28,216 nucleotides of DNA from Gammaproteobacteria bacterium (GCA_030830945.1 JAURLY010000234.1:1-28216), one strand, 5' to 3'. Shown: positions 2,768 to 28,216, counted from the first letter of the stretch. Notes: a model not told the origin generated them from the sequence alone. Made by a program: numbers and translations.

Positions 2768-2794
2768 TTGATAAGCTTTCGCCCAACCTATAAT
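2768..2794 (+). promoter_or_regulatory. Candidate promoter of the kpsD operon
   Basis: Perfect TATAAT at 2789-2794. TTGATA at 2768-2773 gives only a 15-nt spacer, so the -35 is uncertain. Confidence 0.4.
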
Positions 2795-2828
2795 GTATGC
2801 GGCCTTAATGTTAAATGGTTTTTTAAGG

Positions 2829-4505: not shown

Positions 4506-4510
4506 AAGTT

Positions 4511-9848: not shown

Positions 9849-9912
9849 ATGGATTTACCTAGATTGATAACCCATTTTAGTTTTTCGTTTTGATGATTTA
9901 CGGAACTCAAGC

Positions 9913-10608: not shown

Positions 10609-10688
10609 CCACTTGACTTAACAGTGCTATAAAATCCGCTCTCTTTTTTTTGAGAATCTGCTTTTAATCCAATATCCAGAAGAGCATC

Positions 10689-11498: not shown

Positions 11499-11521
11499 TC
11501 GATCTTATAAAACAGAAATTA

Positions 11522-12695: not shown

Positions 12696-15600
12696 ATGCC
12701 TAACAAAAAACAAAGGATAGCTATTGTCGGCATGGCCTTCCGTTTTCCGGGAGACATCGATAATCAGGAGAAATTTTGGAGCGCACTCACTAAAAAACAA
12801 GACCTGGTGACAGAAATAGGCGCGGATCGCTGGGACAGCAGTATTCTCAAACACTCCAGAAAATCCGAGGCTGGCAAAAGCTATGTATTTTCTGCAGGAC
12901 AGCTAAAGCGCATACAGGAATTTGATGCCCAGTTTTTTGGTATTTCACCAAGAGAGGCTGGACAAATGGATCCGCAGCAACGGCTTCTGCTCGAACTCAG
13001 CTGGGAGGCCATGGAAAATGCTGCGGTTAACCCAGAAACACTGGAAGGTTCTGACACCGCAGTCTATGTTGGCATTGCCAGTACTGATTATGCGCAAAGA
13101 CGCATGGATGACTTTTCATCCGCAGATGCTTATTCCATGACGGGATCAACAGCGAGCATTGCATCCAACCGAATTTCTTATATTTTTGACCTTCACGGGC
13201 CAAGTATGTCTATCGATACGGCCTGTTCCAGTTCTCTGGTCGCATTACACCAAGCCTGTAATTCCATTTGGAAAGGTGAAGCCAGCAAGGCCCTGGTAGG
13301 CGGGGTGAACCTGCTACTACACCCGTTTGGGTTCGTTGGTTTTTCCAAAGCATCCATGTTGTCTGCCAGCGGTCGCTGTCGTGCTTTTGATGCTGGCGGA
13401 GATGGCTATGTTCGCTCAGAGGGATGTGCCGTTCTATACCTCAAGCCTCTTGAACAGGCGGAAAAAGATGGCGATCGAATTCATGCAGTCATTGTTAATA
13501 CAGGTGTGAACTCAGACGGTCGAACCAATGGCATCACGATGCCCAGTTTTGATGGTCAATCTGCGCTATTGAAAAAGGTTTACGAAGAGGCTGGGATTAA
13601 CGTCAATGAGATTGATTACATTGAGGCCCACGGAACCGGAACTGCTGTGGGTGACCCTATCGAGGCCACAGCAATTGGTGAAACGCTCGCTAAACTTCGT
13701 TCTCACAAACACTTTCTTCCTATTGGCTCCGTCAAGACCAATGTTGGCCATATGGAAACTGCCTCTGGTATGGCCGGCATCGTAAAAGCAATTCTCTGCC
13801 TAAAACACCGAGCTATTCCTCCCAATCTGCATTTTGACGTCCCAAATCCCAATATTGATTTTGATGGTCTAAATATCAGTGTTGTTGACCAGATGTCCGA
13901 ATTCCCGGAATCAGATAAGAACCTTATCGCCGGGGTCAACTCATTTGGTTTTGGGGGAGCTAATTCACATGCAATTCTGGAAGAATACAGGGATACACAG
14001 GCGCGAAGCTCTGACATTCCTGATGATATAGAAGCGCCGCCGCTCTTTCTTTCAGCCGCCAGCCCTGCCGCTCTCAAACAAATGGCCGAGCAGTACGCAG
14101 ATTTTTTACGTACTAATTCCGCTTGGTACTACGATATTGCCTATCAGTTGGCGCACAAACGGGCGCACCTGAATAACGGCCTGGCCGTCAAAGCGAAGTC
14201 CGTTAGCGGCCTAATCAGGTCTCTGCGAAGTTATATCGAGGGTGAGGAAAATTCTGCGGTTGTCACACAGACACTTGTCGAGAAAAAAGCAGTCGTCGCG
14301 TTTATTTATTCCGGGAATGGATCTCAGTGGCTGGGAATGGGGCGCGACCTATTCGCCGCTGATGAGCTATTTGCCGAAAAGCTTGGCGAGGTGGATGAAC
14401 TTCTTAAAGAGCATGTGGATTACTCAATTATTGAGGAACTCCATGCAGAGCCGGAAAACTCACGTTTCCACCTGACAGAAATCGCCCAGCCCGCTCTCTT
14501 TGCAATTCAGGTAGGTATTACCGAATGGCTGGCAGATCAGGGCATTAAGCCCAAGGCAGTCGCCGGCCATAGTGTTGGCGAAGTGACCGCTGCCTGGGCG
14601 GCTGGTGCATTGACTTTAAAACAGGCTACCCACCTTATTGTTGAGCGAAGTGCAGCACAGGGCCTGACACGTGGCACAGGCCGCATGTCTGCCATGGGGC
14701 TAGGGCAGGAAAAAGCGGTCAGCCTTATTGACGAATTAGGACTTAAGGGCCAGGTTGAGATTGCCGGCGTAAACAGCACGAAATCAGTCACACTGGCCGG
14801 TTCCCTCCCCGCATTACAAAAACTCGAATCTGCTGCCGGGCAAAGGGATGTTTTTTATCGAATACTGGATCTTGATTACGCCTTCCACAGCAAGTACATG
14901 GATCCAGTAAAAGATCGTTTGCTAACCTCATTGGAAAGCCTAAGGCCGGGCCAAACCTCAGTGCCTATGTATTCCACCGTAATCGGCAAAAAAATCGATG
15001 GCAAAAAATTTACTGCCCAGTACTGGTGGGAAAATGTGCGACGTCCTGTGGCCTTTGGCAAAGCCGTTGATGCAATGATTGAAGACGGCATCCATGTATT
15101 TATGGATGTCGGACCCCATCCAATTATGCGCGGCTATCTTAACGAATGCTTGCGAAATGCAAATATTCGCGGTTTGGTTAGCCCAACGCTAATGAGAAAA
15201 TCCGATGAAGTTCAGGATATCCAGCGTGCGCTGTTAAGTGTTCATCTTGCTGGGGCATACATGGACCTTGATCGTCATTTTCCGGTTCCCGGCACTCATA
15301 TCGAATTGCCTACCTACCCTTGGCAGCATCAGGGATATTGGCATGAGGTTACGGATGAAGGGTATAACCTCACTGGCCGCCGTGTTGAACACCCATTACT
15401 TGGTTACCGCCTTAAACCTGGACTTCCTCAGTGGGAGATTCATCTTGACTGCGAGACTGTACCCTACTTGGCAGATCACGTCGTAGGCAATGGCGAGGTA
15501 ATGCCGGCTGCTGCCTATGTAGAAATGGCTTTGGCCGCTGCAAAAATTTGGTATCAGGAAGATAGCTTCCATGAGCTGGAAGACCTGGAAATTCGCTCTC

Positions 15601-18600
15601 CCATGCTTTTTGAAGCCGATCAATTGCGCACACTGCGTTTTGAGCTTTCCGAAGCCTCTGGACATTTCGTTATAAAAAGTCGCCTAAGACTCACCGATGA
15701 CGCCTGGACAGAACATGTTGTTGGCCGTGTTTTGCATCATAGCTCTGCACCCAATGATTCTTCTCAAGCCATTCAATTTTCCAAAAACCCTGAGGGCAAA
15801 ACCCTATCTGGTCAAGAGCATTACCAAATCGCAGCTGAGCTAGGGTTGAAATATGGCCCTTGCTTCCAGGGTATTGAACAAGTATGGGTATCCGGTAATA
15901 GTGCTGTGGCTAGCGTTACCACCCCAGATGGCATCAATGATCGATTTGAGCAACACGTACTGCATCCTTGTTATCTGGATTCCTGCTTCCAAGTGCTTGT
16001 CGGGCTAATGAGCAACCAGTTTTCTGGAGATAAAGCCAGCGCCATGATCCCTGTGAGGATCGGTCGCTTACGAACTTACAGCACAGGAAAAATAAATTGG
16101 TTTAGTGCGCAAATAACTCGCCAAAGTCCACTATCAGTTTTGGCAGACTTTCAATTATTTGATGTTAATGGCGAACTTGTTGCCAGAGCGGAAGATTGCC
16201 GATTTCGAGCTGTTAACTTTGCACAAGACGCTCATGAAACTGGTATATACGAATATCTTTTGCAGCCAAAGTCGAATGCATACTCTGCCAACAGCTCCGA
16301 AGCCCTGGACACAAAAAACCTGGCAAAAACAGCTGAAAATATTCTTAATGGCGAGGCGCAGGTAAAACGACGACAGACGCTATACTCTGAAGTGGTTCCT
16401 TTGCTGGACACTCTCATCGCATGCTACGCCTATGAGGCGCTCAATCATTTTGCTGAGAATCAGGATCTGGAGCTTGATTCGCTTTTTTCAGATCATGGCG
16501 TAGAACCAAGGCATCAATATCTGGTATCTCGTCTATTACAGATTCTGGAAGAGCAGTCTTGGGCAACAAAACAAGATGACAACTCGTGGAAATTAGCCCC
16601 GAGTGAAGAAATTCCCGATAGTCAGTCTGTATGGCTGACACTTATAGGTGATTACCCTGGTTTGATGCCAGAAGTGTTACTCGCCGGTCGAGCAGGAACC
16701 AATCTTAGTGATTTGCTTTCTGGAAAACGCAAGGTGGAAGATTTCATCAAGCCGGGTAAATCCAGTGGCCTAAAAGACCATATGGCAGACACCGCTCTGA
16801 GCATCAAAGGCACCATGGATAGTCTGGTGGATGTTCTTGGTCAATGGACCAGCCAACGGGAACAATATTTCCGTGTTCTACATCTGGGCAACGGCCAAGG
16901 GAAGCTATGTCAACGCATCATAAAAATGCTTCCTGTTAATTCGGATTATCACTACCTCCATGCAGATGCTGAAGTCTGCGGAAAAGTTGAGGCGCTCATT
17001 GAGGATTACCCTCAAGCCCAGGTATCACAAATTGATTTTGAATCCGCTGATGACTGGAATGAATTTACTGACCAACAAGCTCCTTTTGATCTGGTAATCG
17101 TCAACGAAACACTTCATGCCCACACTCACCCTGACCGACTTCTGCAGACGCTACGATCTGCCATGAGTGCAGAGTCACTATTGTTATGCATGGAGAAAAA
17201 TCCTTCTCGTCTTGGCGATATCACTTTTGGCCTTGATGATGATTATTGGCATCGAACAACGAACCCGGAAAATCCAACACCGCTTCGATTGCACGTTAAC
17301 AAATGGGCCAGCTTGACTCAGTCGGCAGGTTTTACAGACACACAGGCCATTAGCGATGACCCCGACAAGATTTCCGGCTCTTACTTACTACTTGCCAGAA
17401 ATGAAGCTGCACCAGAAGTTCTGGTTACAGAGAAACGTTGGCTGATCGTAACTGACTCAACAGCTAACGCCAATTCCTTGACTCACACGCTGGCTGAGCA
17501 ACTCCCGGCTAATATTCATGCAACATATCTGTCTCATCAAGCGGGCTGCAACAAACTGGAAACGCCGGATGAAGGTCAAAATATACTGGATTTGGTTAAC
17601 GGCAATTTCTCTGAAAACCTGGATAAGCTCGAACTAACCCAAATTGATTCTGTGCTATTTCTCTGCGGCTTAAATACCCGTCATAGCGAACTGGGTGACA
17701 GCCTTAATTTAAGAACAGTAGCCGCATTAAATATTGCAAAACTTATTAATACTGTCACCGAAAACCGTCCATCTCTTCGCTTGGTAACGCTGGGAGGCAG
17801 CACAGCATCTGTCGGCAAAAAACATCTGGCTGACGCTGCCCTTTGGGGGCTTGGACGCGTTATTCGCAATGAAATTGCAGACATCGATTGTAGCCAGATT
17901 GATCTTGCTGATGACAAGCCCGAATCCCTGCTTCCTACGCTCATCACAGAATTACAACACCCGAATAACGACCGTGAAATCGTGCTCGAAAAAACTCAGC
18001 GATACGTGCTGGAGATGCAATCCAGACCTATCAAGAAAGGGCAGGAAGAAGACTGGAACGGGCCTATCAAGTTAGACTTTAGCGATCCCGGGCTTTTGAA
18101 AAACCTTCAATGGGTTCCTCTCAAGGATCAATCTCCTGGAAATGGTGAACTTAAGATCCGACCAATGGCCTCCGGACTTAATTTCCGCGATGTTATGTAT
18201 GCCATGGGCTTGCTATCGGATGAAGCTGTCGAAAGTGGATTTTCAGGACCCACACTCGGTATGGAATTTGCGGGTGAAGTAGAAGCAGTTGGTAAGGAAG
18301 TCACCGGTTTCAGCGTTGGCGATCGCGTTATGGGTTTTGGCCCTGCCTGTTTTAGTACCCAGCTAATCACAAAAGCAACAGCTGTAGCGCATATCCCACA
18401 GACATGGCTATTTGAAGAAGCGGCTACCATACCCACAACTTTCTTCACCGCATACTACGCACTTGATCATCTTGCCCGCCTTCAGGAAGGTGAACGCATA
18501 CTGATTCACGGTGGCGCCGGCGGTGTAGGTATTGCAGCCATTCAACTGGCTCATTATTTGGGAGCAGAAGTCTTTGTAACTGCCGGCTCAGATGAGAAGC

Positions 18601-20318
18601 GTGACTTTGTTCGTCTCATGGGCGCTGACCATGTACTTGACTCACGAAGCTTAAATTTTGCCGATGACATTATGGCGCTCACAGATGGAGAAGGCGTTGA
18701 TGTTGTGCTCAACTCATTAGCCGGCGAGGCAATCAATAAGAACCTTAAAATTCTGCGCCCATTTGGTCGATTCCTTGAGCTCGGAAAACGAGATTTTTAC
18801 GAGAATTCGAGGATCGGGTTACGCCCATTCCGCAATAACATCTCTTATTTCGGCATAGATGCAGATCAATTAATGGTGGAAAAACCCGCACTTGCTGAAC
18901 GGGTATTCAAAGAACTGATGTCGATTTTTGAAGAAGGCGCTCTGCGCCCACTTCCTTACCGAGTGTTTAATGCCACACGAGCCGAGGAAGCTTTCCGCTA
19001 TATGCAACAGGCACGCCAGATTGGCAAAATCCTGATCAACTATGAAGACCTGCCTAAGGTTAAATGCCCAGTAAAAGAACAGCGTGACAGTCTCCAACTT
19101 GATCCCGAAGCGACCTATCTGGTTACTGGAGGTTTGGGTGGATTTGGTTTGGAAACGGCAAAGTTTCTGGCAAGCAAGGGTGCCAAACATTTAACCCTCA
19201 TAAGTCGTTCCGGAACTTCACCGGAAAGTTCTATCGCGTCCTTCAATGAATTATCCCAGATGGATATTGAATTGAGCTGTCACTCCATTGATGTCACTAA
19301 TCATGAACAGTTATCCGAGCTATTTGAAGATTTTGGCTCTTCTTTGCCCCCTCTGAAAGGAATTGTTCATGCCGCTACCGTATTCGATGATGGACTATTG
19401 CAAAACCTGGATGCAACTCGCATGCGCAATGTCCTTGACCCTAAAGTCATAGGTGGATGGAATTTGCACGAACTAAGCAAACCTCTCGACCTGGACATGT
19501 TCATTGTCTACAGCTCGGTAACTACCTATTTTGGCAACCCAGGCCAAGGCAACTACGTTGCTGCAAACAGCGCGTTGGAAGGTCTGGTGGAGCTGCGAAA
19601 AAATCAGGGGTTAAAGGGTTTGTTCGTCGCGTGGGGCGCCATCAATGATGCAGGCTTCCTTACCAGAAACGAAGATGTAAAAGATGCTTTACAAGCCCGA
19701 CTGGGTGGTTCTTCTCTAACATCCAAACATGCGCTATCAATTTTGGAAGAATTACTTTTAAGTGATCGCACAGGTTGTGCCGTAATGGATATTAACTGGG
19801 GACCAATGAAGCGTTTTCTACCCATATCCAGCTCTAATCAATACCGCATCCTCAACTGGCAGGCTGCCAGACAAGGTGGCGACGATGATCAGGGAGAAGA
19901 TATCCGCGAATTGCTCAAAGGATTGGACCATGAAGACGCGCTGGCGAAGGTAGCGGAATTACTTTCACGAGAAATTGGACATATCCTGCGAATACCTGCC
20001 GACAAACTTGATCAGCAGACGTCTGTTTTCGATCTAGGCATGGATTCACTCATGGGAGTGGAACTGGCTATGGCCGTTGAAAAACGTTTCAACGTGAATA
20101 TGCCGGCTATGGCACTTTCTGAGGGTCCTTCAATCCTGCGACTATCGGAGCGCATAATTCAGAAGCTCATGGGTGCCGAAATCGAGCAGGAAGACAACCA
20201 AGATAAAGACAGCGTTCGACGACTTGCCAATGTCCACAACGAGAACCTCGGTGAAGAAGGACTGGAAGAGTTGAGCAACAAAATGAAGTCCTCTGACAAA
20301 AACAGCAGTATTCTGTAA
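12696..20318 (+). CDS. wcbR: Highly reducing type I polyketide synthase, WcbR/RkpA type (KS-AT-DH-degenerate MT-ER-KR-ACP)
   Basis: KS: MDPQQRLLL, DTACSSS (C177), EAHGTGT, KTNVGH. AT: GHSVG (S626), YAFH (728-731). DH: DHVVGNGEVMP (H928). MT-like: VLHLGNGQG. ER: IHGGAGGVG, GRFLELGK. KR: TGGLGGFG, VFDD, GNYVAAN (Y2287). ACP: LGMDSL (S2451). No TE or reductase release domain. Confidence 0.95.
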   Translation: MPNKKQRIAIVGMAFRFPGDIDNQEKFWSALTKKQDLVTEIGADRWDSSILKHSRKSEAGKSYVFSAGQLKRIQEFDAQFFGISPREAGQMDPQQRLLLELSWEAMENAAVNPETLEGSDTAVYVGIASTDYAQRRMDDFSSADAYSMTGSTASIASNRISYIFDLHGPSMSIDTACSSSLVALHQACNSIWKGEASKALVGGVNLLLHPFGFVGFSKASMLSASGRCRAFDAGGDGYVRSEGCAVLYLKPLEQAEKDGDRIHAVIVNTGVNSDGRTNGITMPSFDGQSALLKKVYEEAGINVNEIDYIEAHGTGTAVGDPIEATAIGETLAKLRSHKHFLPIGSVKTNVGHMETASGMAGIVKAILCLKHRAIPPNLHFDVPNPNIDFDGLNISVVDQMSEFPESDKNLIAGVNSFGFGGANSHAILEEYRDTQARSSDIPDDIEAPPLFLSAASPAALKQMAEQYADFLRTNSAWYYDIAYQLAHKRAHLNNGLAVKAKSVSGLIRSLRSYIEGEENSAVVTQTLVEKKAVVAFIYSGNGSQWLGMGRDLFAADELFAEKLGEVDELLKEHVDYSIIEELHAEPENSRFHLTEIAQPALFAIQVGITEWLADQGIKPKAVAGHSVGEVTAAWAAGALTLKQATHLIVERSAAQGLTRGTGRMSAMGLGQEKAVSLIDELGLKGQVEIAGVNSTKSVTLAGSLPALQKLESAAGQRDVFYRILDLDYAFHSKYMDPVKDRLLTSLESLRPGQTSVPMYSTVIGKKIDGKKFTAQYWWENVRRPVAFGKAVDAMIEDGIHVFMDVGPHPIMRGYLNECLRNANIRGLVSPTLMRKSDEVQDIQRALLSVHLAGAYMDLDRHFPVPGTHIELPTYPWQHQGYWHEVTDEGYNLTGRRVEHPLLGYRLKPGLPQWEIHLDCETVPYLADHVVGNGEVMPAAAYVEMALAAAKIWYQEDSFHELEDLEIRSPMLFEADQLRTLRFELSEASGHFVIKSRLRLTDDAWTEHVVGRVLHHSSAPNDSSQAIQFSKNPEGKTLSGQEHYQIAAELGLKYGPCFQGIEQVWVSGNSAVASVTTPDGINDRFEQHVLHPCYLDSCFQVLVGLMSNQFSGDKASAMIPVRIGRLRTYSTGKINWFSAQITRQSPLSVLADFQLFDVNGELVARAEDCRFRAVNFAQDAHETGIYEYLLQPKSNAYSANSSEALDTKNLAKTAENILNGEAQVKRRQTLYSEVVPLLDTLIACYAYEALNHFAENQDLELDSLFSDHGVEPRHQYLVSRLLQILEEQSWATKQDDNSWKLAPSEEIPDSQSVWLTLIGDYPGLMPEVLLAGRAGTNLSDLLSGKRKVEDFIKPGKSSGLKDHMADTALSIKGTMDSLVDVLGQWTSQREQYFRVLHLGNGQGKLCQRIIKMLPVNSDYHYLHADAEVCGKVEALIEDYPQAQVSQIDFESADDWNEFTDQQAPFDLVIVNETLHAHTHPDRLLQTLRSAMSAESLLLCMEKNPSRLGDITFGLDDDYWHRTTNPENPTPLRLHVNKWASLTQSAGFTDTQAISDDPDKISGSYLLLARNEAAPEVLVTEKRWLIVTDSTANANSLTHTLAEQLPANIHATYLSHQAGCNKLETPDEGQNILDLVNGNFSENLDKLELTQIDSVLFLCGLNTRHSELGDSLNLRTVAALNIAKLINTVTENRPSLRLVTLGGSTASVGKKHLADAALWGLGRVIRNEIADIDCSQIDLADDKPESLLPTLITELQHPNNDREIVLEKTQRYVLEMQSRPIKKGQEEDWNGPIKLDFSDPGLLKNLQWVPLKDQSPGNGELKIRPMASGLNFRDVMYAMGLLSDEAVESGFSGPTLGMEFAGEVEAVGKEVTGFSVGDRVMGFGPACFSTQLITKATAVAHIPQTWLFEEAATIPTTFFTAYYALDHLARLQEGERILIHGGAGGVGIAAIQLAHYLGAEVFVTAGSDEKRDFVRLMGADHVLDSRSLNFADDIMALTDGEGVDVVLNSLAGEAINKNLKILRPFGRFLELGKRDFYENSRIGLRPFRNNISYFGIDADQLMVEKPALAERVFKELMSIFEEGALRPLPYRVFNATRAEEAFRYMQQARQIGKILINYEDLPKVKCPVKEQRDSLQLDPEATYLVTGGLGGFGLETAKFLASKGAKHLTLISRSGTSPESSIASFNELSQMDIELSCHSIDVTNHEQLSELFEDFGSSLPPLKGIVHAATVFDDGLLQNLDATRMRNVLDPKVIGGWNLHELSKPLDLDMFIVYSSVTTYFGNPGQGNYVAANSALEGLVELRKNQGLKGLFVAWGAINDAGFLTRNEDVKDALQARLGGSSLTSKHALSILEELLLSDRTGCAVMDINWGPMKRFLPISSSNQYRILNWQAARQGGDDDQGEDIRELLKGLDHEDALAKVAELLSREIGHILRIPADKLDQQTSVFDLGMDSLMGVELAMAVEKRFNVNMPAMALSEGPSILRLSERIIQKLMGAEIEQEDNQDKDSVRRLANVHNENLGEEGLEELSNKMKSSDKNSSIL

Positions 20319-20339
20319 CAGGAATTTAAGGCCTAAAGA

Positions 20340-21701
20340 ATGAGCAAAGAAAAAAAATCGCTATTCGGCCTCTCGGGCCAGGCCAAGGAACGCCTGATTC
20401 AGGCGGCTCTGGATAAGCGAAGTGAGTCTTCAGGGAGACAACAACCAGAAGATGATGCTCATTCCAGGTTTTCCAGTGAACGTCGACTAAAGATTGACCC
20501 TTCGCTCTGTCGTTTCGACAGTTATCCTAATTACAAGGATATGCTGATCCAGAAAGCGGCATCTGAACAACTTGGATTAGAAAACCCCTTTTTTAGAGTC
20601 CATGAGGGCATTGCAGCAGACACTTCGGTCGTCAATGGTAAGGAATGCATTAACTTCAGCAGCTATAACTATTTGGGGCTCAGTGGAGATCCCCGAGTTA
20701 TGGATGCAGCCAAGAAAGCCATTGATCAATACGGAACTTCTGCCTCTGCCAGCCGCCCAGTATCCGGGGAACGGCCAGTTCAAAGGCAATTAGAGCAAAA
20801 ACTTGCAGAGTTATATGGAACTGAGGATTGTGTCGTTTTTGTCAGCGGACATGCAACTAACGTCTCAACCATCGGTTACCTTTTTGGCCCTAACGACCTG
20901 ATTATCCACGACTCGTTGATACACAATAGCGTGCTGATGGGCATTCAGCTCTCTGGCGCTTTTAGGTTGTCTTTTCCTCATAATGACTGGAAAGCCCTCG
21001 ACCGAATTCTTTCCGAACGCCGCAAAGATTATCAACGGGTACTGATTGTTACGGAAGGCATCTACAGCATGGATGGCGACTTCCCCGACCTTCCCAAATT
21101 CATCGATATCAAAAAACGCCACAAGGCATTCTTGATGGTGGATGAAGCTCACTCTCTGGGGATTATGGGGGAACGCGGCAAGGGGATAGCCGAGCACTTT
21201 GGGATTTCCGGAAACGATGTAGATATCTGGATGGGAACACTCAGTAAAACCTTGGGAAGTTGTGGTGGCTACATTGCAGGAGAAACAGCACTGGTGAACC
21301 ATCTTAAATTCGCAGCGCCGGGTTTTCTTTACAGTGTCGGTATCTCACCGCCTCTTGCAGCGGCATCGCTCAAGGCTCTGGAGATACTGGAGCAGGAGCC
21401 ACATCGAGTTCGCCACATTCAACACAATGGCGAATTTTTCAAAAAACGCGCTGATGAGGCCGGTCTGGATACAGGTTTAAGCATGGGTTTATCCATTACA
21501 CCCTTAATCATAGGCAGTTCCATTAAAGCAACGCGCTTGTCCAACCTGCTCTTTGAAAAGGGTATCAATGTACAACCAATTATTTATCCTGCGGTCGAAG
21601 AACGCGCCGCTCGTTTACGATTCTTTATTTGCGCCAGTCATACTGAAGAACAAATAGAATCCACAGTCAAAATCGTTCAAGATCAACTGGCAAAAATTTA
21701 G
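20340..21701 (+). CDS. wcbT: PLP-dependent alpha-oxoamine synthase (BioF/SPT family), WcbT/RkpG type
   Basis: NFSSYNYLGL, GTSASASR, FVSGHATN, HDSLIHNS, FPHND, EGIYSMDGD, VDEAHSLG, GTLSKTLGSCGGY (PLP K303), RLRFF. Starts 21 nt after the PKS stop. Confidence 0.92.
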   Translation: MSKEKKSLFGLSGQAKERLIQAALDKRSESSGRQQPEDDAHSRFSSERRLKIDPSLCRFDSYPNYKDMLIQKAASEQLGLENPFFRVHEGIAADTSVVNGKECINFSSYNYLGLSGDPRVMDAAKKAIDQYGTSASASRPVSGERPVQRQLEQKLAELYGTEDCVVFVSGHATNVSTIGYLFGPNDLIIHDSLIHNSVLMGIQLSGAFRLSFPHNDWKALDRILSERRKDYQRVLIVTEGIYSMDGDFPDLPKFIDIKKRHKAFLMVDEAHSLGIMGERGKGIAEHFGISGNDVDIWMGTLSKTLGSCGGYIAGETALVNHLKFAAPGFLYSVGISPPLAAASLKALEILEQEPHRVRHIQHNGEFFKKRADEAGLDTGLSMGLSITPLIIGSSIKATRLSNLLFEKGINVQPIIYPAVEERAARLRFFICASHTEEQIESTVKIVQDQLAKI

Positions 21702-21725
21702 GGCTAGTCCCGAGGATAGGCAGCT

Positions 21726-22529
21726 GTGACCAAAGCTCGTGTGCTGCTTTGCACCAGCGGTGGCATTTGTGCCACTTTGAGTCTCCAGGCTTTACTGGCA
21801 ATTGATGAGGTAGCCGTCGCGGGCGTATTTCTTTCGACCCGTGCTCGCACAAAAAACGGCAGTTTTACCGGTGATGTGCTTCGAATCATTCGCACTTCCG
21901 GCCTCAGTTACGCTAGTTATCTGGCTATGGGAACAACCATTTTTGACTGCTTTCGTTTACCCGGAACGTTGCCCACAGTAAATAAGCTGGCCAAGCTGCA
22001 CAAAATCCCTTTTTTCTGCTCAAATGATATCAACTCTACTGATTCGCACACCTGGTTGTCGAAACAATTCCCGGATATTCTGTTATCGAGCTTTTTTAAC
22101 TTGAAACTCTCACCCGCCACAATAGCTATTCCCTCGCAGACTGCTATTAACTTACATCCGGCCCTTTTACCCGCCTATAAAGGCGTCGACCCTGTTTTCT
22201 ATTATTTTTCGAATAACGAAAATATTTTTGGGGTCAGTCTGCACAAAATAGCGGAAGAATTTGATACTGGAGAAATAATCGCACAAAAAAGCATGTCTAA
22301 AAATCCGGACAAAAGTGTTTTTTGGCACAACATCGAACTGTTTCGCCATGGCCTAGAACTTTTTCACGCATGGATATCTTCCCCATCGCCAGCTACAAAC
22401 ATCGAAAATACAGATATCAACGATCAATATGATTCATGGCCATCACCAGATCAGGTAAAAAAACTAGGCCATCCTCTCTACAGTTTTTCTGACTTTCTGG
22501 AACAAAGCAGAAGACCTTTTGGATTATGA
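21726..22529 (+). CDS. N10-formyl-THF-dependent formyltransferase (Formyl_trans_N domain only)
   Basis: AINLHPALLPAYKGVDP (N-x-H and LLPxYKG motif), GVSLHKIAEEFDTGEII (catalytic Asp). At 267 aa it is shorter than a full methionyl-tRNA Fmt. GTG start. Confidence 0.85.
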   Translation: MTKARVLLCTSGGICATLSLQALLAIDEVAVAGVFLSTRARTKNGSFTGDVLRIIRTSGLSYASYLAMGTTIFDCFRLPGTLPTVNKLAKLHKIPFFCSNDINSTDSHTWLSKQFPDILLSSFFNLKLSPATIAIPSQTAINLHPALLPAYKGVDPVFYYFSNNENIFGVSLHKIAEEFDTGEIIAQKSMSKNPDKSVFWHNIELFRHGLELFHAWISSPSPATNIENTDINDQYDSWPSPDQVKKLGHPLYSFSDFLEQSRRPFGL

Positions 22530-22535
22530 TAATCC
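22521..22535. repeat. Perfect 7-1-7 palindrome GGATTAT-G-ATAATCC on the overlapping stop codons
   Basis: Read directly. It spans TGA (22527-22529) of the formyltransferase and TAA (22526-22524) of the dioxygenase. Confidence 0.85.
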
Positions 22536-23510
22536 GGTTCGACTAACGGCTTTTGGTCGTCGCCTGATAGTGCTTATTGACCTGTTTAACGCAAGGCGGT
22601 CTAACCATCGCCACCCTGGAATAGGCAAAAGCAGAAAGGGATTTATTCGATTACTAAACGCCATGGATAGCCGGGTGCTATTCGCCGAGGCTTCTCCCCG
22701 ACGATGAAAACCAAAAGTATCGGCAACAACCAAGGTATTCGCCTTGACTTCCAATGATCGAATCGGCCCATAACCCAGAGCTTCAATTTCGGAATCATCG
22801 ACTCTCAATGAACCACGACGGGCATAGGTCGCGCCCTCCTCTTTTACACCCAAACTTTGACGATACTCCCACATCAAACGTTTCCAGGTAAGCCGATTGG
22901 AACCCTGTACAAATTCGAAAGGCCCCTTGCTCGAGTCGACATCCTCCAGAAATAACCAGGCTTTCATGGTCGGGTGAAAGGTGTCCGAATGAAAATACTT
23001 TTGGGGGTCACCCTGCCGGCTTCCTCCCACATTAACCACCCTGAGAAAATCCATCCAGGGAGATAAACCACAGGCAGCCACATATTTCATTAAACGATTC
23101 AAAGAATCGTTATGCGCCAGTTTTTTGCATGCAGGCAGCAACTGCTGCCGTTTAGAGTCGAGATATACGAATTCAGTAGTGGTATCACCCTGCACGAAAT
23201 ATCGAACTTCTGGCCATTCCGAATTAGCTTCTTGCTGCAATGCGAGAAAGTGCTCATTTGGCACAGCGTTTTCCAAAATAACAAAACCGTTCTGGCGAAA
23301 CTGATTTTTCATATCCGCCGGCAATCGCCAACCAAGGATAAATCGGCGAACACCGGTTAAACTATGCGCCAGAAGAACTCGCAATACATGCAAACCCAAT
23401 CGATTGAGCAAATGGTTGCCAATAACCGGGTTGGCTTCAAAGGATTTTGCTTCGGTAAATATTTCCAGAAACCAAACGGGATACCGAAACATGTTCGAAG
23501 TTTTTTTCAT
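22524..23510 (-). CDS. Second PhyH-family Fe(II)/2-oxoglutarate dioxygenase
   Basis: PQKYFHSDTFHPTMKAWLFLEDV (HxD), GPFEFVQGSNR, VVADTFGFHRRG (distal His), RLSMAF. The start may be 23510 or 23492. Confidence 0.85.
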   Translation of the reverse strand: MKKTSNMFRYPVWFLEIFTEAKSFEANPVIGNHLLNRLGLHVLRVLLAHSLTGVRRFILGWRLPADMKNQFRQNGFVILENAVPNEHFLALQQEANSEWPEVRYFVQGDTTTEFVYLDSKRQQLLPACKKLAHNDSLNRLMKYVAACGLSPWMDFLRVVNVGGSRQGDPQKYFHSDTFHPTMKAWLFLEDVDSSKGPFEFVQGSNRLTWKRLMWEYRQSLGVKEEGATYARRGSLRVDDSEIEALGYGPIRSLEVKANTLVVADTFGFHRRGEASANSTRLSMAFSNRINPFLLLPIPGWRWLDRLALNRSISTIRRRPKAVSRTGLS

Positions 23511-23596
23511 GAGTTAAGGTTATATGTTGATCATCGCAATCATACCAATTTCATTAGACTGTTTATGCCATTCCTTGGCCTCTATGGAAACGCCTG

Positions 23597-25687
23597 GTGA
23601 CTGATATTCCAGAAAAAAAATATAACTCTGCACTCTGTTTATCTGACGGGATAGCATCAGTACCTAATCTGGCATTTTTTACCGGGGCAAACAAACATCG
23701 CTCTACCCGCGGTCTTAATTTTCCCTGGCAACTCGGCAATGCTGACCTGATTGTCGACTGGGGCAATAAAAGGCTGGATTTTTGCCAGAAACTTGTCGAC
23801 AAACAACAGGTCGATATTCTTCGTCTGGAGGATGGATTCATTCGTTCTCTTGGCCTGGGCGTCGAGGGCAGTCGGTCATTTTCAATTGTCAGCGACTGGA
23901 GTGGTATATATTACGATGCTCGCAAGGCGTCAGATTTAGAGAAAATCCTGAATGGCCAACATGTGCTTTCCCACAGGTTATCTGGATTACACCAGCGCGC
24001 CAAATCCTGTATTGATCTAATCCGGAAGCATCAGCTATCGAAATATAACCACGCTCCAAGTCTTGATCTGGGAACCCGCAAAGGACTACGAATTCTACTG
24101 GTAGATCAAACGGCCAACGACCTGTCTATCTCTGGGGGATTGGCATCAAAGCAAAGCTTTGAGCAGATGCTGCAAGATGCCTTGACCGAAAATGATTCAG
24201 AAATCTTCATTAAAACTCACCCAGATGTTCTTTGCGGCAAGAAACAAGGCTATCTCACTAATCAAAAATTACCAAAAAATGTCCGAATAATTGGCAAAAA
24301 CTGCAACCCTCTCAATTTGATAGAACAAGTAGACGAGGTTTGGTGCGTCACTTCCCAAATGGGCTTTGAGGCCTGTATGGCCAGAAAAAAAGTACGCTGC
24401 TACGGCATGCCTTTTTATGCCGGATGGGGCGTAACCGAAGACCAGATAAAACTGGATCGAAGGACAGAAAGGCGCTCACTGGAAGAAATTTTTATCGCCG
24501 CTTATTTACTCTACAGCACCTATTTCGATCCTGACACGGGTGAGATCTGCGATTTAGAAATCGTCATTGATCACATTGCACGGCAAAAGCATTACTGGGG
24601 ACAAAACCGTGGGCATTTTATTTGCCTGGGTTTTGACGCCTGGAAGCACACTTACGTACGGGATTATTTGCGCAGTGATGACAACAGAATTACATTCAAG
24701 AAAAAACTAAGTAATACCGACGTTAAAAGCCAGCCTCGCATACTGGTTTGGGGCATTAATGCCGACAAGGGTTCCCTGAAGTTAGCCCATCGTCACGGGC
24801 TTCCTATTGCCACCATGGAAGATGGGTTTATTCGATCTGTAAACCTGGGAAAGTATGGAACTGCGCCTCGATCTCTGGTGATTGATCAACAGGGGATATA
24901 CTTCGACCCGGAATCAAACTCCGATCTGGAAAAAATCCTTTCTTCAGATACTTTCTCCGAAGATGAGCTGAGGCAAGCCAAATCGTTGATTAAGACGATT
25001 ATTGAAGGCGGCTTAAGCAAATATAATGTCGGCGAGATTGTCCCGATAAGCGTAAACAACCAGCCCCAGCAGAAATTGATTCTCGTCCCGGGGCAAGTGG
25101 GAATCGACGCGTCGATTGCCAAGGGCTGTGACCAAATACATACCAACATGGCACTTTTGGCGGAAGTTCGCAGGCTTAACCCCGATGCATTTATTTTATT
25201 CAAACCCCACCCGGATATCGTTTCCGGAAATATCAATGAATACGGCAACTATGCAGAATATGCCGATCAGATTGAGCCATATGCGCATATTCATGCCTGT
25301 TTAAGTATTGCCGACGAGATACACACCATGACATCACTGGTGGGCTTTGAGGCGCTGATAAGACAAATTCCCACAACTACTTATGGTCGCCCCTTTTACG
25401 CTGGCTGGGGGCTGACAAGGGACTTAACCACAAAAAAGATGCCTAATCGGGATCGACAACTTAACCTCGAACAGCTGGTCGCGGGGGTCTATGTGAAATA
25501 TCCAAGATACATCAATCCTGCTACAGGCGAATTCACTTCAGCGATTCGATCAGTGCAGGGATTACAGAAAGAATTATCAGAGAAGGGTGTCACCCGAATA
25601 AGTAGCTCACTATTCAATCGCTGGTATCTTAAAGTTCGTTACGGAGGCTGGGGAATGTTAAAAACACTGCTTTCTAAAAATCGATAG
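23597..25687 (+). CDS. kpsC: Capsule linker beta-Kdo transferase KpsC (two GT107 domains; WcbA/RkpZ-like)
   Basis: Duplicated motifs EDGFIRS, YYDARKASDLE / YFDPESNSDLE, SKYN (twice), GQV..DAS, KTHPD / KPHPD, TSQMGFEA / TSLVGFEA, YGMPFYAGWG / YGRPFYAGWG. GTG start. Confidence 0.93.
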   Translation: MTDIPEKKYNSALCLSDGIASVPNLAFFTGANKHRSTRGLNFPWQLGNADLIVDWGNKRLDFCQKLVDKQQVDILRLEDGFIRSLGLGVEGSRSFSIVSDWSGIYYDARKASDLEKILNGQHVLSHRLSGLHQRAKSCIDLIRKHQLSKYNHAPSLDLGTRKGLRILLVDQTANDLSISGGLASKQSFEQMLQDALTENDSEIFIKTHPDVLCGKKQGYLTNQKLPKNVRIIGKNCNPLNLIEQVDEVWCVTSQMGFEACMARKKVRCYGMPFYAGWGVTEDQIKLDRRTERRSLEEIFIAAYLLYSTYFDPDTGEICDLEIVIDHIARQKHYWGQNRGHFICLGFDAWKHTYVRDYLRSDDNRITFKKKLSNTDVKSQPRILVWGINADKGSLKLAHRHGLPIATMEDGFIRSVNLGKYGTAPRSLVIDQQGIYFDPESNSDLEKILSSDTFSEDELRQAKSLIKTIIEGGLSKYNVGEIVPISVNNQPQQKLILVPGQVGIDASIAKGCDQIHTNMALLAEVRRLNPDAFILFKPHPDIVSGNINEYGNYAEYADQIEPYAHIHACLSIADEIHTMTSLVGFEALIRQIPTTTYGRPFYAGWGLTRDLTTKKMPNRDRQLNLEQLVAGVYVKYPRYINPATGEFTSAIRSVQGLQKELSEKGVTRISSSLFNRWYLKVRYGGWGMLKTLLSKNR

Positions 25688-25693
25688 ATGCGA

Positions 25694-26554
25694 TTAAATC
25701 CAACGCCAGGCATCCGGCGTGTTAAAAAGCGCAGCCATGCCTGAATGATTGGTTACATGCGCTGACGAGTGACAAGTAATCTTTCCCCGAATATCCCCGC
25801 CAACCAATTGCAGGTCACCGATAATATCCAGCACTTTATGGCGCACCATATCATTTGCATGCAGCAGTCCCGAAGGGTTTATCGGTCGACCAAACGCGTA
25901 CACCACAGCAGTATTTAATCCCGCCCCACGCAATACCGGGTTTTTAAGGAAGTTACCCACGATCTTTGGCAACCAAATATCCTTTAGACGCCCCCAGGCT
26001 TTGGCACCAATAATTTCCTGTTTAAACACTGCCGGAGTCATATCGCCGGCCCATGGCATATGACCATACTCGCCCGGATAGATATTAATATCGACGGCAA
26101 AACCATCGTACGGCTCAAACGAAAATTTTCGGTGCTCATTTTCATAGCTGACAGGCTGAAGTATTTCCAGAACTCGACGCTGTTCACCTAAATCAATAGT
26201 CCCTACTTCGTCGATCAACTCGACAATAGGTCGGGCACTGCCATCGAGAATGGGCACTTCTTCGCCCTCGATCTCAACTTCCAGATTATCTATGCCCGTG
26301 GCATAACATGCAGCCATTAGGTGCTCGACCGTTCGTACCGACACCCCTTGATCATTGGCGATGCAAGTACAGGCGGGATATCTAATCACCCTATCCCAAA
26401 GAGCAGGCACCCAGTTGTCCGAACCTTGCCCATCCAATCGGTGAAACCTTATACCCATACCTGCATCTGAAGGTTTTAAGTGCACAATAGCATTACGCCC
26501 GCTATGCATTCCCTTACCATGGAAACTGACGGTTTTTGCGATAGTGTTCTGCAA
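25694..26554 (-). CDS. wcbS: LpxC paralogue, Zn-dependent N-deacylase (WcbS type)
   Basis: QNTIAKTVSFHGKGMHSG, VRTVEHLMAA, DNLEVEIEGEEVPILDGSA, RHKVLDIIGDL, SSAHVTN. Zn and catalytic residues are kept, but the ARTFGF substrate motif is replaced by AKAWGR. The start was set at TTG 26554 (GGAGG 5 nt upstream) instead of 26566. Confidence 0.85.
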   Translation of the reverse strand: MQNTIAKTVSFHGKGMHSGRNAIVHLKPSDAGMGIRFHRLDGQGSDNWVPALWDRVIRYPACTCIANDQGVSVRTVEHLMAACYATGIDNLEVEIEGEEVPILDGSARPIVELIDEVGTIDLGEQRRVLEILQPVSYENEHRKFSFEPYDGFAVDINIYPGEYGHMPWAGDMTPAVFKQEIIGAKAWGRLKDIWLPKIVGNFLKNPVLRGAGLNTAVVYAFGRPINPSGLLHANDMVRHKVLDIIGDLQLVGGDIRGKITCHSSAHVTNHSGMAALFNTPDAWRWI

Positions 26555-26610
26555 TCTGTCCTCCAAAAAAATGAATTGCTGTTGAGCTAACGAAATCCTG
26601 CAGGTTTACC

Positions 26611-26639
26611 TTGACTAACACTCAGCAGCTTCGTAATGT
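26611..26639 (+). promoter_or_regulatory. Candidate sigma70 promoter for kpsS
   Basis: TTGACT (26611-26616), 17-nt spacer, TAATGT (26634-26639), about 90 nt upstream of the kpsS ATG. Confidence 0.5.
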
Positions 26640-26682
26640 CCCGCCTCAATTCCGTGCCCTCTTGATACTGCCAGAAAGCAAT

Positions 26683-26731
26683 CAACAGACGGAAATATAC
26701 AACAGACACGAGCATCTCAACGACGAAATAT
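26683..26731 (+). repeat. Three degenerate tandem direct repeats in the kpsS leader
   Basis: CAACAGACGGAAATAT (26683-26698), CAACAGACACGAGCAT (26700-26715), CAAC-GACGAAATAT (26718-26731, ending in the ATG). Confidence 0.55.
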
Positions 26732-27953
26732 GCCCGACGCCCGCCATTTCCTCTTTTTACAAGGACCAATCTCGCCTTTTTTTCCGTTGCTGGCAAAAAA
26801 ACTGGAGGGGCAAGGACACAAGGTTTTTAAAATAAACCTTAACCTGGGCGATCAATTGCATTGGAAGTGTACGAATACTTCTAATTATCGAGGGAAACTG
26901 GAACACTGGGATAACTGGATTGGCCAGTACTATCATGACCACCAGATTACTGACATCCTGCTTCTTGGTGAACAGCGCGAATATCACCAAATAGCTATCC
27001 AGAAAGCACGGAATGAAAACATTCAGGTTATTGTTACCGATTTCGGCTACTTGCGTCCCGACTGGATTACCTTTGAGCACAACGGGATGTCTTCTGAGTC
27101 CCTTTTTCCGCAATCCCCCGAAGAAATTATGGCGTTAGCCGATCAATGCGGCACTCGCGATATGAAAAAAGTGTATCAGGATTCTTTTTTCAATCAGGCA
27201 TATTGGGATGTGCTTTACCATTTTGCGGCCATTCTGGGCTGGATATTTTTTCCGGGCTATGACAATTTCCGGCGCCATAATCCCGTTCAGGACTATCTTG
27301 GTATTTTGGTCCGACTCATGCGACGTCGATGGGTGGAGCCCAAAGCATCAAGCTTTGTAGAATGGATTAGCGCAAGTGACATTCGCTACTTTGTCTACCC
27401 GCTTCAGCTCCAGCACGATTATTCCATTCAGGCATATTCTCCCTACGATGGTAACGACCAGCCTATGGAAGACATCTTGCGCTCATTCGCGCATTCATCA
27501 CCTAAGGACGTCCATCTGGTAGTGAAAATTCACCCACTAGATCCCAACCCTTTTAAATGGAAGCGCATGGTACTTTCTGGCGCGAGACGCTTTCATATAG
27601 CTGACAGAGTACATTTTCTCGACGGTGGAAATCTGCAAAAACTGCTCTATTCGGCTCAGGGAATGATTACCATCAATAGCACGACAGGCATAGCCACCTT
27701 GCAGGAAGGTATTGCCACCAAAATATTGGGCAGTGCAATCTACGACATTGAAGGATTGGTCAGCAAGCAGTCTCTGGACGAATTCTGGAATGATCCCACA
27801 CATCCAGACATCCCCTTACGCGATGCGTTTATCAAGGCGCTGACAGACACCGTGCAACTGAAAGGAACCTACTATCAGCAGCCCGGTCTGGATAATGCTG
27901 TTGAAGAAGCCGCACACCGCTTGCTTAATAACAAGATTAACCAACCCTATTAG
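26730..27953 (+). CDS. kpsS: Capsule priming beta-Kdo transferase KpsS (WcbO/RkpJ-like)
   Basis: FLFLQGPISPFF, DFGYLRPDWITFEHNG, PLQLQHDYSIQAYS, VKIHPLD, ITINSTTG, KILGSAIYDIEGL, TVQLKGTYY. Confidence 0.92.
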   Translation: MPDARHFLFLQGPISPFFPLLAKKLEGQGHKVFKINLNLGDQLHWKCTNTSNYRGKLEHWDNWIGQYYHDHQITDILLLGEQREYHQIAIQKARNENIQVIVTDFGYLRPDWITFEHNGMSSESLFPQSPEEIMALADQCGTRDMKKVYQDSFFNQAYWDVLYHFAAILGWIFFPGYDNFRRHNPVQDYLGILVRLMRRRWVEPKASSFVEWISASDIRYFVYPLQLQHDYSIQAYSPYDGNDQPMEDILRSFAHSSPKDVHLVVKIHPLDPNPFKWKRMVLSGARRFHIADRVHFLDGGNLQKLLYSAQGMITINSTTGIATLQEGIATKILGSAIYDIEGLVSKQSLDEFWNDPTHPDIPLRDAFIKALTDTVQLKGTYYQQPGLDNAVEEAAHRLLNNKINQPY

Positions 27954-27957: not shown

Positions 27958-28216
27958 TTACAGTTTTTCTATACTGGACAGGAATCCTCGAAGAATTTGG
28001 ACTTCAGACTCATCGGGGCGAATTCGGTTAAACATCCTTCGTAAACGAGTCATTGTTTGGCGGGGATTTGACGGATTATGAAACCCAGTCTTCATCATCG
28101 ACCGCTCCAAATGCTCAATCAAAAACTCTACTGACTCACTTGATGCAAGCGGTTCATCCCATTGTTCACAGATCGGCAGCTCACCGGCTTCATCAAGCTG
28201 ATGCATTCGTAATTCA
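27958..28216 (-). CDS. trmJ: tRNA/rRNA 2'-O-methyltransferase TrmJ, C-terminal part (runs off the right edge)
   Basis: ...ELRMHQ...EPLASSESVEFLIEHLE...GFHNPSNPRQTMTRLRRMFNRIRPDESEVQILRGFLSSIEK matches the TrmJ C-terminal domain. trmJ normally precedes iscR. Confidence 0.88.
   Translation of the reverse strand, partial: ELRMHQLDEAGELPICEQWDEPLASSESVEFLIEHLERSMMKTGFHNPSNPRQTMTRLRRMFNRIRPDESEVQILRGFLSSIEKL

Follow-up and report, generated by a model that had tools for sequence, protein, structure and literature searches.

Introduction

In Pseudomonas fluorescens MYb115, the iterative polyketide synthase (PKS) PfSgaA and the synthase PfSgaB are needed for the production of C24-C28 sphinganines, as well as of species heavier by 154 Da that were assigned as phosphoglycerol-sphingolipids (Peters et al. 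2025, PMC12134224). According to the same study, purified PfSgaB is a serine palmitoyltransferase (SPT) with an almost exclusive preference for L-serine, PfSgaC, a KDSR-like short-chain dehydrogenase/reductase (SDR), is the proposed reducer of the 3-keto group, and homologous clusters number 6,101, with Burkholderia predominating. The rkp-1 region of Sinorhizobium, which holds rkpA and rkpG, is genetically required for the secretion of both K-antigen polysaccharide (KPS) and a polymer of 3-deoxy-D-manno-octulosonic acid (poly-Kdo) (PMC4881576). Which lipid carries the capsule in rkp/wcb-type bacteria (Burkholderia, Bordetella, rhizobia) is a question that has been open since the 1990s. Here, we describe a variant of the known rkp-1/wcb/Sga PKS-sphingoid module, located in a kps capsule locus at positions 12696 to 27953 of a gammaproteobacterial stretch of 28,216 nucleotides (GCA_030830945.1, JAURLY010000234.1:1-28216), hereafter the window. 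The window spans the full length of contig C200 (28.2 kb), from a 1.96-Mb metagenome-assembled genome (MAG) with a completeness of 87%.

Two further systems are useful for comparison. In capsules primed by KpsS and KpsC, the canonical acceptor of KpsS is phosphatidylglycerol and the known terminus is lyso-phosphatidylglycerol (review PMC13721041). In the fumonisin pathway (Fum1, Fum8 and Fum3), as in the window, a pyridoxal phosphate (PLP)-dependent oxoamine synthase takes the chain off a highly reducing PKS that lacks a releasing domain, and a 2-oxoglutarate (2OG) dioxygenase tailors the product, but this pathway is fungal and non-orthologous, yields a free toxin and comes without Kdo transferases or exporter, so that the likeness is a mechanistic analogy only. 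The substrate of Fum8 is alanine. For the KDSR step, a parallel with fumonisin (Fum13 ketoreductase) was already drawn in PMC12134224.

We consider it somewhat probable that the locus makes an N-formylated sphingoid primer for KpsS and KpsC that is later deformylated by an LpxC paralogue, as part of a lineage-specific variant of the rkp-1/wcb/Sga module.

The PKS and the synthase form a pair of the RkpA/RkpG family

By calling genes as open reading frames (ORFs) and scanning them with Pfam and NCBIfam, we found, as the first-pass annotation had listed them, a PKS without thioesterase, an oxoamine synthase, a formyltransferase, a dioxygenase, an LpxC-like gene, kpsC and kpsS, all seven intact. 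The PKS (12696..20318, plus strand, 2540 aa) is an iterative highly reducing type I enzyme of the RkpA/WcbR/PfSgaA type, as judged from its Pfam domains and active-site motifs. It comprises KS (6-381), AT (536-854), DH (899-1174), ER (1815-2114), KR (2139-2317) and ACP (2423-2487) domains and ends with a 53-aa tail; no thioesterase domain was found by the Pfam scan of the 2540-aa protein. The KS Cys/His/His, AT GHSVG, DH His, KR Ser/Tyr/Asn and ACP Ser motifs are all present. A weak methyltransferase-like stretch at residues 1393-1497 reached 31.6 bits in Pfam, for a cut-off of 30, and its motif I is degenerate. The protein shares 35-40% identity with S. meliloti RkpA and 41% with the PKS of the Pseudomonas plasmid described below.

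The synthase gene (20340..21701, plus strand, Pfam Aminotran_1_2) starts 21 bp after the PKS stop and encodes a PLP-dependent alpha-oxoamine synthase, which is of the SPT type (RkpG/WcbT/PfSgaB type) and is extended N-terminally by ~90 aa. Among solved structures, serine palmitoyltransferase (3a2b/8guh) is its best match (E 1e-71), and it is 53% identical to RkpG and 57.6% identical to the Pseudomonas plasmid homologue. By homology, the pair belongs to the family of rkpA/rkpG (Sinorhizobium), wcbR/wcbT (Burkholderia) and PfSgaA/B (Pseudomonas), and its core product is predicted, after PfSgaAB, to be a serine-derived sphingoid base with a very long chain. A link of this locus to wcbRST and rkpA/G had been proposed and is thus borne out, by the identity to RkpG and by that of the KpsS protein to RkpJ (41%), and the term "sphingoid-like lipid" named the right product class, as seen from the PfSgaAB family (PMC12134224). 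The accompanying statement that the lipid product of such PKSs is not well defined is out of date, since PfSgaAB has been shown to make C24-C28 sphinganines and phosphoglycerol-sphingolipids (PMC12134224).

Relatives of the synthase were collected by a pattern scan of one genome per species, which gave matches on 358 stretches from the representative genomes. The pair is present in at least 358 species. Identity to the synthase of the window is 57-93% for the 80 best matches. Hosts include Gamma- and Betaproteobacteria (Marinobacterium, Cocleimonas, Thiothrix, Bordetella, Achromobacter), Desulfobacteraceae, Nitrospiraceae, Campylobacteraceae and Acidobacteriaceae. We then clustered all ORFs of 83 loci, and the PKS lies directly upstream of the synthase in 81 of them. 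Within the order to which the window belongs, the pair is patchy, being found in ~12-14 of 400 sampled genomes and, within its own family, in its own genus only.

Comparison with the Pseudomonas, Sinorhizobium and Bordetella loci

As a stand-in for the PfSga cluster, we used plasmid pL21564-1 of Pseudomonas sp. TMW 2.1634 (NZ_CP016850.1, locus L133), where the order is PKS>synthase<PhyH<KpsC<GNAT<LTA-synthase-family<SDR<KpsS<KpsC-like<phosphotransferase, then KpsF and KdsB. In MYb115, the numbering of the locus tags from PfSgaC (RS19775) to PfSgaB (RS19800) has space for four intervening genes, and this spacing suggests that the MYb115 cluster is arranged like that of the plasmid, where the four genes in between are PhyH, KpsC, GNAT and the gene of the lipoteichoic acid synthase (LtaS) family. 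Like the window, the Pseudomonas cluster combines a thioesterase-less iterative type I PKS and an SPT-type synthase with adjoining PhyH (38% identity), KpsC and KpsS. Unlike the window, it carries a GNAT in place of the formyltransferase as well as an LtaS-family protein and a KDSR-like SDR (PfSgaC), it has no LpxC paralogue, and its KpsS falls in another deep clade. The whole set sits on a 100-kb mobilizable (MOBP) plasmid and adjoins an IS5 transposase, neighbours that are not mentioned in Peters et al. 2025; from this location, the module is therefore mobile.

The rkp-1 region of S. meliloti (L132) contains RkpU, RkpA, RkpG, RkpH, a region with the sulfatase-family RkpI, RkpJ and KpsF. The rkp-1 regions of Sinorhizobium meliloti and fredii share with the window the PKS (35-40%), the synthase (53%), RkpJ (41%, same KpsS clade) and a polysaccharide export gene beside them. 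In contrast, they have the SDR RkpH and the sulfatase-family RkpI, and the formyltransferase, PhyH and LpxC paralogue genes are absent from the 25 kb fetched. The L132 record (CP090106.1) is labelled "plasmid pSymB", but with 3.7 Mb and with both rkp-1 and secD on it, it looks like a mislabelled chromosome. In the RkpI stretch of this record the plasmid table has no coding sequence, yet tblastn shows a sulfatase-family frame.

The wcbO-wcbT region of the Burkholderia pseudomallei capsule CPS-I likewise belongs to an ABC-transporter capsule locus, where homologues of KpsC and KpsS accompany a PKS of the WcbR type and a synthase of the WcbT type. For the wcb type, the comparison of gene content covers the Bordetella/Achromobacter loci, where the order is PKS, synthase, KdsA, KdsB, KpsC and KpsS and the KdsB gene is a KdsB-KdsC fusion. 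In contrast to the window, the formyltransferase, PhyH and LpxC paralogue genes are all missing from these loci, and the only LpxC of their genomes is the housekeeping one.

The gene set is conserved in a lineage without KDSR-type reductase and LtaS-like genes

The nearest named relatives of the MAG are "Pseudomonadales bacterium" MAGs (closed chromosomes of 2.6-2.8 Mb), then Marinobacterium. We define the window lineage as the window plus four relatives (L003, L005, L007 and L006/L086). The order PKS>synthase>formyltransferase<PhyH>KpsC<LpxC>KpsS is common to the window, L003, L005 and L007, while L006/L086 carry the same genes rearranged, so that the gene set does recur. Given that this order recurs in relatives whose proteins are 48-93% identical, the arrangement is conserved and not due to chance.

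First, no sulfatase-family gene (LtaS/RkpI type) was found in the window-lineage loci, the MAG or G001, a closed relative of 2.6 Mb; such a gene is present in 14 of the 83 other loci. Second, no SDR of the KDSR type (RkpH/PfSgaC type) was found: the window has none, and in the MAG as well as in G001 and G814, both closed relatives, the best SDR matches are generic SDRs of 28-35% identity located elsewhere in the genomes. The lineage loci have no SDR except L005, in which an SDR of a different cluster lies beside kpsS. Counted over the five loci of the lineage, the KDSR-type reductase is lacking in three. Third, the LpxC paralogue and the PhyH gene are, together with these two losses, the lineage-specific traits. 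The view of the locus as a variant system therefore stands as far as the LpxC paralogue, PhyH and the missing SDR and LtaS-like genes are concerned, but not for the formyltransferase, which is common (34/83 loci). Since in L022 and L044 the LpxC paralogue and PhyH are each added to a full set of formyltransferase, SDR and sulfatase-family genes, these two genes are add-ons, whose gain was separate from the loss of the SDR and of the sulfatase-family gene.

The missing SDR and sulfatase-family genes, together with the small genome of the MAG (~2-2.6 Mb), would also fit a decaying locus that has lost the reductase and the LtaS-like transferase, whose product is no longer processed to a usable acceptor and whose extra genes are unrelated passengers. 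We regard this as very improbable. All seven genes are intact with their catalytic motifs present, and the arrangement has been kept even though the formyltransferases of some relatives are down to 48-50% identical (the synthases are 78-93% identical), which indicates purifying selection.

A formyltransferase follows the synthase

The formyltransferase-fold gene (21726..22529, plus strand, Pfam Formyl_trans_N), whose product is a predicted sphingoid-amine N-formyltransferase, has its start codon 24 bp past the synthase stop, and in 27 of 33 loci the two genes are on the same strand with at most 50 bp between them. The catalytic Asn-x-His and Asp residues align with those of GDP-perosamine formyltransferase (5vys) and of ArnA, and the match to the ArnA formyltransferase domain has an E value of ~6e-11. 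The protein falls outside the named NCBIfam equivalogs (Fmt, PurN, ArnA, sugar), with a best score of 66.8 for a cut-off of 316, and it has ~23 homologue clusters in 5.8 billion proteins.

More generally, the slot behind the synthase is occupied by an amine-capping enzyme in 42 of the 83 loci. It is the formyltransferase in 34 of them, mostly in Gammaproteobacteria, and a GNAT in L021 and L043; a further GNAT lies within the Pseudomonas plasmid cluster. In six betaproteobacterial loci (L052, L061, L063, L066, L067 and L080), the slot is filled by an E2-type acyltransferase (2-oxoacid-dehydrogenase catalytic domain), and in a Legionellales locus (L075) a cytochrome P450 and an LpxL-like lipid A acyltransferase precede the formyltransferase. 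These E2-type and LpxL-like acyltransferases hint at N-acylated, ceramide-like products in the loci that have them.

Among solved structures, the formyltransferase is closest to sugar N-formyltransferases, which speaks for an alternative in which the LpxC paralogue, PhyH and possibly the formyltransferase act on sugars, for instance in deacetylation before N-sulfation or in oxidation, while the PKS and the synthase still make a lipid. Against a sugar substrate, the formyltransferase stays coupled to the synthase even far from sugar genes: in Cocleimonas-type loci the order is P450>PKS>synthase>formyltransferase>chorismate-lyase-like, with no sugar genes nearby. Because the coupling holds there, we argue that the enzyme acts on the amine of the lipid.

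For the addition and later removal of formyl on an amine linked to a lipid, ArnA and ArnD of the aminoarabinose modification of lipid A are an established precedent. The window resembles the Arn system in that its formyltransferase aligns with the ArnA formyltransferase domain; unlike that system, it has no Arn genes, and its candidate deformylase has the LpxC fold and not that of ArnD. In L009, L012 and L013 (Marinobacterium, Oceanospirillaceae), the formyltransferase and LtaS-like genes are separated by a gene for a peptidase of the M28/M20 family, and this peptidase is a possible alternative deformylase where the LpxC paralogue is absent.

The LpxC paralogue and the PhyH dioxygenase

The LpxC paralogue ("LpxC2"; 25694..26566, minus strand, Pfam LpxC, 231 bits) is a predicted zinc amidase with an altered substrate pocket. 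Aligned to 4mdt, it keeps the equivalents of E. coli E78, H79, H238, K239, D242, D246 and H265, and its TIGR00325 score of 172.7 is under the equivalog cut-off of 187.25. The housekeeping LpxC is encoded separately, on contig C107, and is 30% identical to the paralogue. In a tree, 12 paralogues of known context plus L103 form a clade apart from housekeeping and alphaproteobacterial LpxC (support 99/95), and all 12 come from PKS-synthase genomes. The clade has a 5-6-residue insertion in the region that forms the acyl passage of LpxC, and 13 fixed substitutions. Among these substitutions, a lysine that precedes the catalytic His by three residues (E. coli K262 in the 4mdt alignment), which we take to be part of the basic patch that binds UDP, is Ser in 11 of the 11 paralogues compared.

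The paralogue is present in all five Cocleimonas-type genomes tested, and in the three flanks fetched an ABC ATPase gene is directly upstream of it, an MsbA-like ABC exporter in the case of C. flava. The Cocleimonas-type Thiotrichaceae split the system over three loci (L014, L018-L020, L025, L028, L030, L041; L128-L131), namely the P450-to-chorismate-lyase-like (Rv2949c-like) locus given above, KpsS>SDR>LtaS-like, and MsbA-like ABC exporter>LpxC paralogue. Every paralogue-bearing genome also has a formyltransferase or a GNAT. Related genomes are not independent, and these counts are therefore an association and not a proof. A strict pairing of formyltransferase and paralogue was rejected, as Marinobacterium and Thiothrix have the formyltransferase with the housekeeping LpxC only. 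In a class-wide sample, two of 400 genomes (G615 and G535) had a match to the paralogue at E <= 1e-45; we rejected both as carriers, since they fall outside the clade and are devoid of a synthase orthologue, PhyH and KpsS.

The second PhyH-family Fe(II)/2OG dioxygenase of the window (22524..23510, minus strand, weak Pfam PhyH) has H174-x-D176 and H269 invariant in 32 homologues, along with a conserved N-terminal extension. We rejected a reading as a halogenase, given that the carboxylate ligand of the HxD motif is present and invariant. Homologues adjoin the synthase or KpsC/KpsS in the Pseudomonas plasmid, in an alphaproteobacterial contig and in L044. A dedicated role of the whole PhyH family in the module was not supported, because three of the homologue contexts that we looked up are unrelated to it.

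The hypothesis of sugar substrates draws further on this region. The polymer region has two sulfotransferases and a first PhyH gene of its own, the natural substrate of LpxC is a nucleotide sugar, and an LpxC-PhyH pair is found in a kps-type locus without PKS. This pair (L104/L112, on a 275-kb metagenome contig) consists of an LpxC-family gene adjoining a PhyH gene (43% identical to that of the window) in an ABC-transporter locus with many GT4 genes. However, the LpxC of L104 lies outside the paralogue clade, whereas the clade itself tracks PKS-synthase genomes, and the Cocleimonas copy stands by a lipid-flippase-like ABC exporter with no glycosyltransferase near it. In the window lineage, the LpxC paralogue and PhyH flank kpsC and kpsS and not the serotype-specific region, and the exchange of the K262 equivalent for Ser also argues against a nucleotide-sugar substrate. 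Taken together, we lean modestly towards the paralogue being an N-deacylase of the capped sphingoid in preference to a sugar deacetylase, and we find it distinctly unlikely that the three enzymes act on sugars.

KpsS, KpsC and the putative Kdo primer

The two Kdo transferases complete the block. kpsC (23597..25687, plus strand; Pfam Capsule_synth, 3 stretches, 259 bits) encodes a two-module beta-Kdo transferase, and kpsS (26730..27953, plus strand; Pfam Capsule_synth) an RkpJ-type beta-Kdo transferase. The latter scored 235 bits with NCBIfam KpsS, for a cut-off of 600, and is therefore a divergent member. In a tree, KpsS proteins form two deep clades (support 100/100). The clade of the window's KpsS also includes S. 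meliloti RkpJ and the proteins of three further loci without sulfatase-family gene, and the other clade holds the Pseudomonas, Thiothrix, Marinobacterium and Bordetella type. This position is compatible with a different acceptor in the window lineage but is no proof of it, because the locus of RkpJ itself has RkpI. Use of the KpsS subtype as a marker for the absence of an LtaS-like gene is weakened for the same reason, RkpJ being sister to the sulfatase-less clade.

Across the 83 PKS-synthase loci, kps genes lie within 10 kb in 39, and L021 is one same-strand block of PKS, synthase, GNAT, KpsC half, LpxC paralogue, KpsS, KpsC half and SDR. This gene neighbourhood, which is strong, points to a sphingoid lipid as a candidate capsule primer. 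A single-chain sphingoid with a phosphoglycerol is a chemical mimic of lyso-phosphatidylglycerol, and the LtaS-family gene is a good candidate for adding the phosphoglycerol head group. We draw this idea from the Pseudomonas plasmid, where the PKS cluster sits among KpsS, KpsC, LtaS-family, KpsF and KdsB genes.

Alternatively, the very-long-chain sphingolipids might be free lipids of the membrane or secreted metabolites that are never joined to the capsule, with the kps genes as co-moving surface neighbours and the capsule built on lyso-phosphatidylglycerol and poly-Kdo. For Pseudomonas, free sphinganines and phosphoglycerol-sphingolipids were indeed reported and treated as secondary metabolites (PMC12134224), phosphatidylglycerol is the canonical acceptor of KpsS (PMC13721041), and the Cocleimonas-type PKS loci have no kps gene within 10 kb. 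Yet five Cocleimonas-type genomes do carry KpsS, which in C. flava forms a KpsS>SDR>LtaS-like operon at a separate locus. In addition, PKS-synthase genes are interleaved with KpsS, KpsC, KdsA, KdsB and KpsF across Alpha-, Beta- and Gammaproteobacteria, with L021 as a single operon, and in Sinorhizobium rkp-1 is required for KPS and poly-Kdo secretion (PMC4881576). On this evidence, we judge the free-lipid hypothesis unlikely.

Elsewhere, the reductase and, as it would seem, the LtaS-like transferase make a sphinganine with a phosphoglycerol head group. Since the window lineage has neither a KDSR-type reductase nor an LtaS-like transferase, the KpsS acceptor is here probably not a phosphoglycerol-sphingolipid. 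One specific solution, which we put forward as unlikely in this exact form, is that an N-formyl sphingoid base with a very long chain (keto- or hydroxy-) directly receives the first Kdo from the RkpJ-type KpsS at one of its hydroxyls and would then be deformylated by the LpxC paralogue.

A proposed pathway and the points against it

The formyl-primer pathway that we favour would run as follows. First, by homology, the iterative PKS would extend a saturated acyl chain to great length while it is bound to the ACP of the enzyme itself. Second, also by homology, the SPT-type synthase would condense the acyl-ACP with an amino acid and release a 3-keto very-long-chain sphingoid base. Third, the formyltransferase may N-formylate the new amine with 10-formyl-tetrahydrofolate and thereby stabilise the alpha-aminoketone. 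Fourth, the RkpJ-type KpsS and KpsC may put beta-Kdo residues on the N-formyl lipid or a derivative of it, on which two glycosyltransferases and two sulfotransferases would build a sulfated polymer for export by KpsMTED. Fifth, and more tentatively, the LpxC paralogue could strip the N-formyl group from the lipid or glycolipid in the manner of ArnD, and the PhyH-type dioxygenase could oxidise the base or the head group. For N-formylation, hydroxylation and use as a capsule anchor, we infer from the gene neighbourhood and the intact catalytic motifs.

Several observations weigh against this pathway. The source organism is an uncultured, marine-type MAG, and with its completeness of 87% it is the closed relatives that support the absence of genes. 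A search of this incomplete genome for a phosphopantetheinyl transferase came up empty, but AcpS was missed as well. L-serine is the most likely amino acid of the synthase, a prediction that comes from the 57.6% identity to the PfSgaB homologue and not from specificity residues. The predicted model of PhyH (pLDDT 90.8) matched SnoN/SnoK, HygX, GriE, KanJ and EctD with modest TM-scores (0.40-0.47), that is a generic PhyH-family likeness, and most of the closest folds (SnoN/SnoK, HygX, AviO1, KanJ) are oxygenases that act on sugars or aminoglycosides, in favour of sugar substrates; other PhyH homologues (41-55% identity) occur in unrelated contexts, one of them beside glmU-glmS. Around the LpxC-PhyH pair of L104, PKS, KpsC and KpsS are absent within 30 kb. 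Deformylation is not obligatory, because Marinobacterium and Thiothrix have the formyltransferase without the LpxC paralogue. Finally, capsule, kps, wcb, rkp and Kdo are nowhere mentioned in PMC12134224, which thus makes no connection between cluster and capsule, and N-acyl or Kdo-linked forms are not among the lipids reported there, which are free sphinganines and phosphoglycerol-sphingolipids.

The capsule locus around the PKS block

The placement of the block inside an ABC capsule locus, already part of the first-pass annotation, is confirmed by the upstream genes. These are, all on the plus strand, a kpsD-type outer-membrane polysaccharide export protein (2793..4505, Pfam Poly_export and SLBB domains), the ABC-2 permease kpsM (4511..5308, Pfam ABC2_membrane), the ABC ATPase kpsT (5305..5982, Pfam ABC_tran) and a kpsE-type inner-membrane export protein (5979..7124), which scored 238 bits with TIGR01010 (BexC/CtrB/KpsE) without reaching the cut-off of 437. 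Together with KpsS and the two-module KpsC, the KpsM/KpsT transporter, KpsE and KpsD make up an ABC-transporter (group 2-like, kps) capsule set. Given these four genes and the polymer genes behind them, the PKS block lies inside a complete ABC-transporter capsule locus.

The polymer genes, again on the plus strand, start with a family-2 glycosyltransferase of 640 aa (7135..9057, serotype-specific region; Pfam Glycos_transf_2 at residues 367-614), followed by the first PhyH-family 2OG dioxygenase (9054..9848, Pfam PhyH, 73 bits, HxD motif present), a Sulfotransfer_3 sulfotransferase (9913..10608, by Pfam) that is kept in relative L007, and a Sulfotransfer_2 sulfotransferase (10689..11498, by Pfam). 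The last gene before the PKS is a GT1-like glycosyltransferase (11522..12541, weak Pfam Glycos_transf_1), whose cluster (c29) also precedes the PKS in L003, L005 and L007. This set of genes at 7135-12541, with its two sulfotransferases of different families, suggests that the capsule polymer is sulfated and exported by the ABC transporter.

The contig ends 263 bp past kpsS, within the 3' part of a SpoU-type methylase gene (27964..28216, minus strand) that was found by tblastn with the L003 SpoU protein (83% identity), and the locus resumes on contig C212, which carries the N-terminal part. There, positions 3180-7150 hold the rest of the SpoU gene, an inositol-phosphatase-family gene that is possibly CysQ-like, a 380-aa gene of unknown function and a P450, which are 67-91% identical to their L003 counterparts (79% for the P450). 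A P450 of the same broad family (31% identity) adjoins the PKS in 11 Cocleimonas-type loci and one Legionellales locus; the P450 on C212 may for that reason be part of the lipid pathway. At the other end of the window, an IscR-like gene and IscS (902-2666) are divergent to the neighbouring kpsD. Two loci of Cocleimonas MAGs (L024 and L025) have the same IscR-like/IscS clusters at a distance of a few kb from the PKS locus, maybe by coincidence.

Discussion

Our comparison bears on the capsule-carrying lipid of rkp/wcb-type bacteria, for which it offers a testable idea, that is a phosphoglycerol-sphingolipid acting as a mimic of lyso-phosphatidylglycerol and primed by KpsS, and it points to cultured carriers in which the capsule-lipid question can be tested, namely P. 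fluorescens MYb115, Cocleimonas flava DSM 24830, Marinobacterium rhizophilum DSM 18822 and S. meliloti. The most interesting point of the window lineage is that KpsS would prime there without the reductase and without a candidate for the addition of phosphoglycerol. This lineage is thus a natural experiment on which lipid features KpsS needs, and on the substrates that LpxC-family enzymes may have beyond lipid A. If the less likely reading with Kdo set directly on an N-formyl sphingoid base is true, a Kdo-sphingolipid would be a new kind of capsule anchor, the LpxC paralogue would be the first enzyme of the LpxC family with a substrate outside lipid A, and the formyl group would serve as a transient protecting group on a lipid amine.

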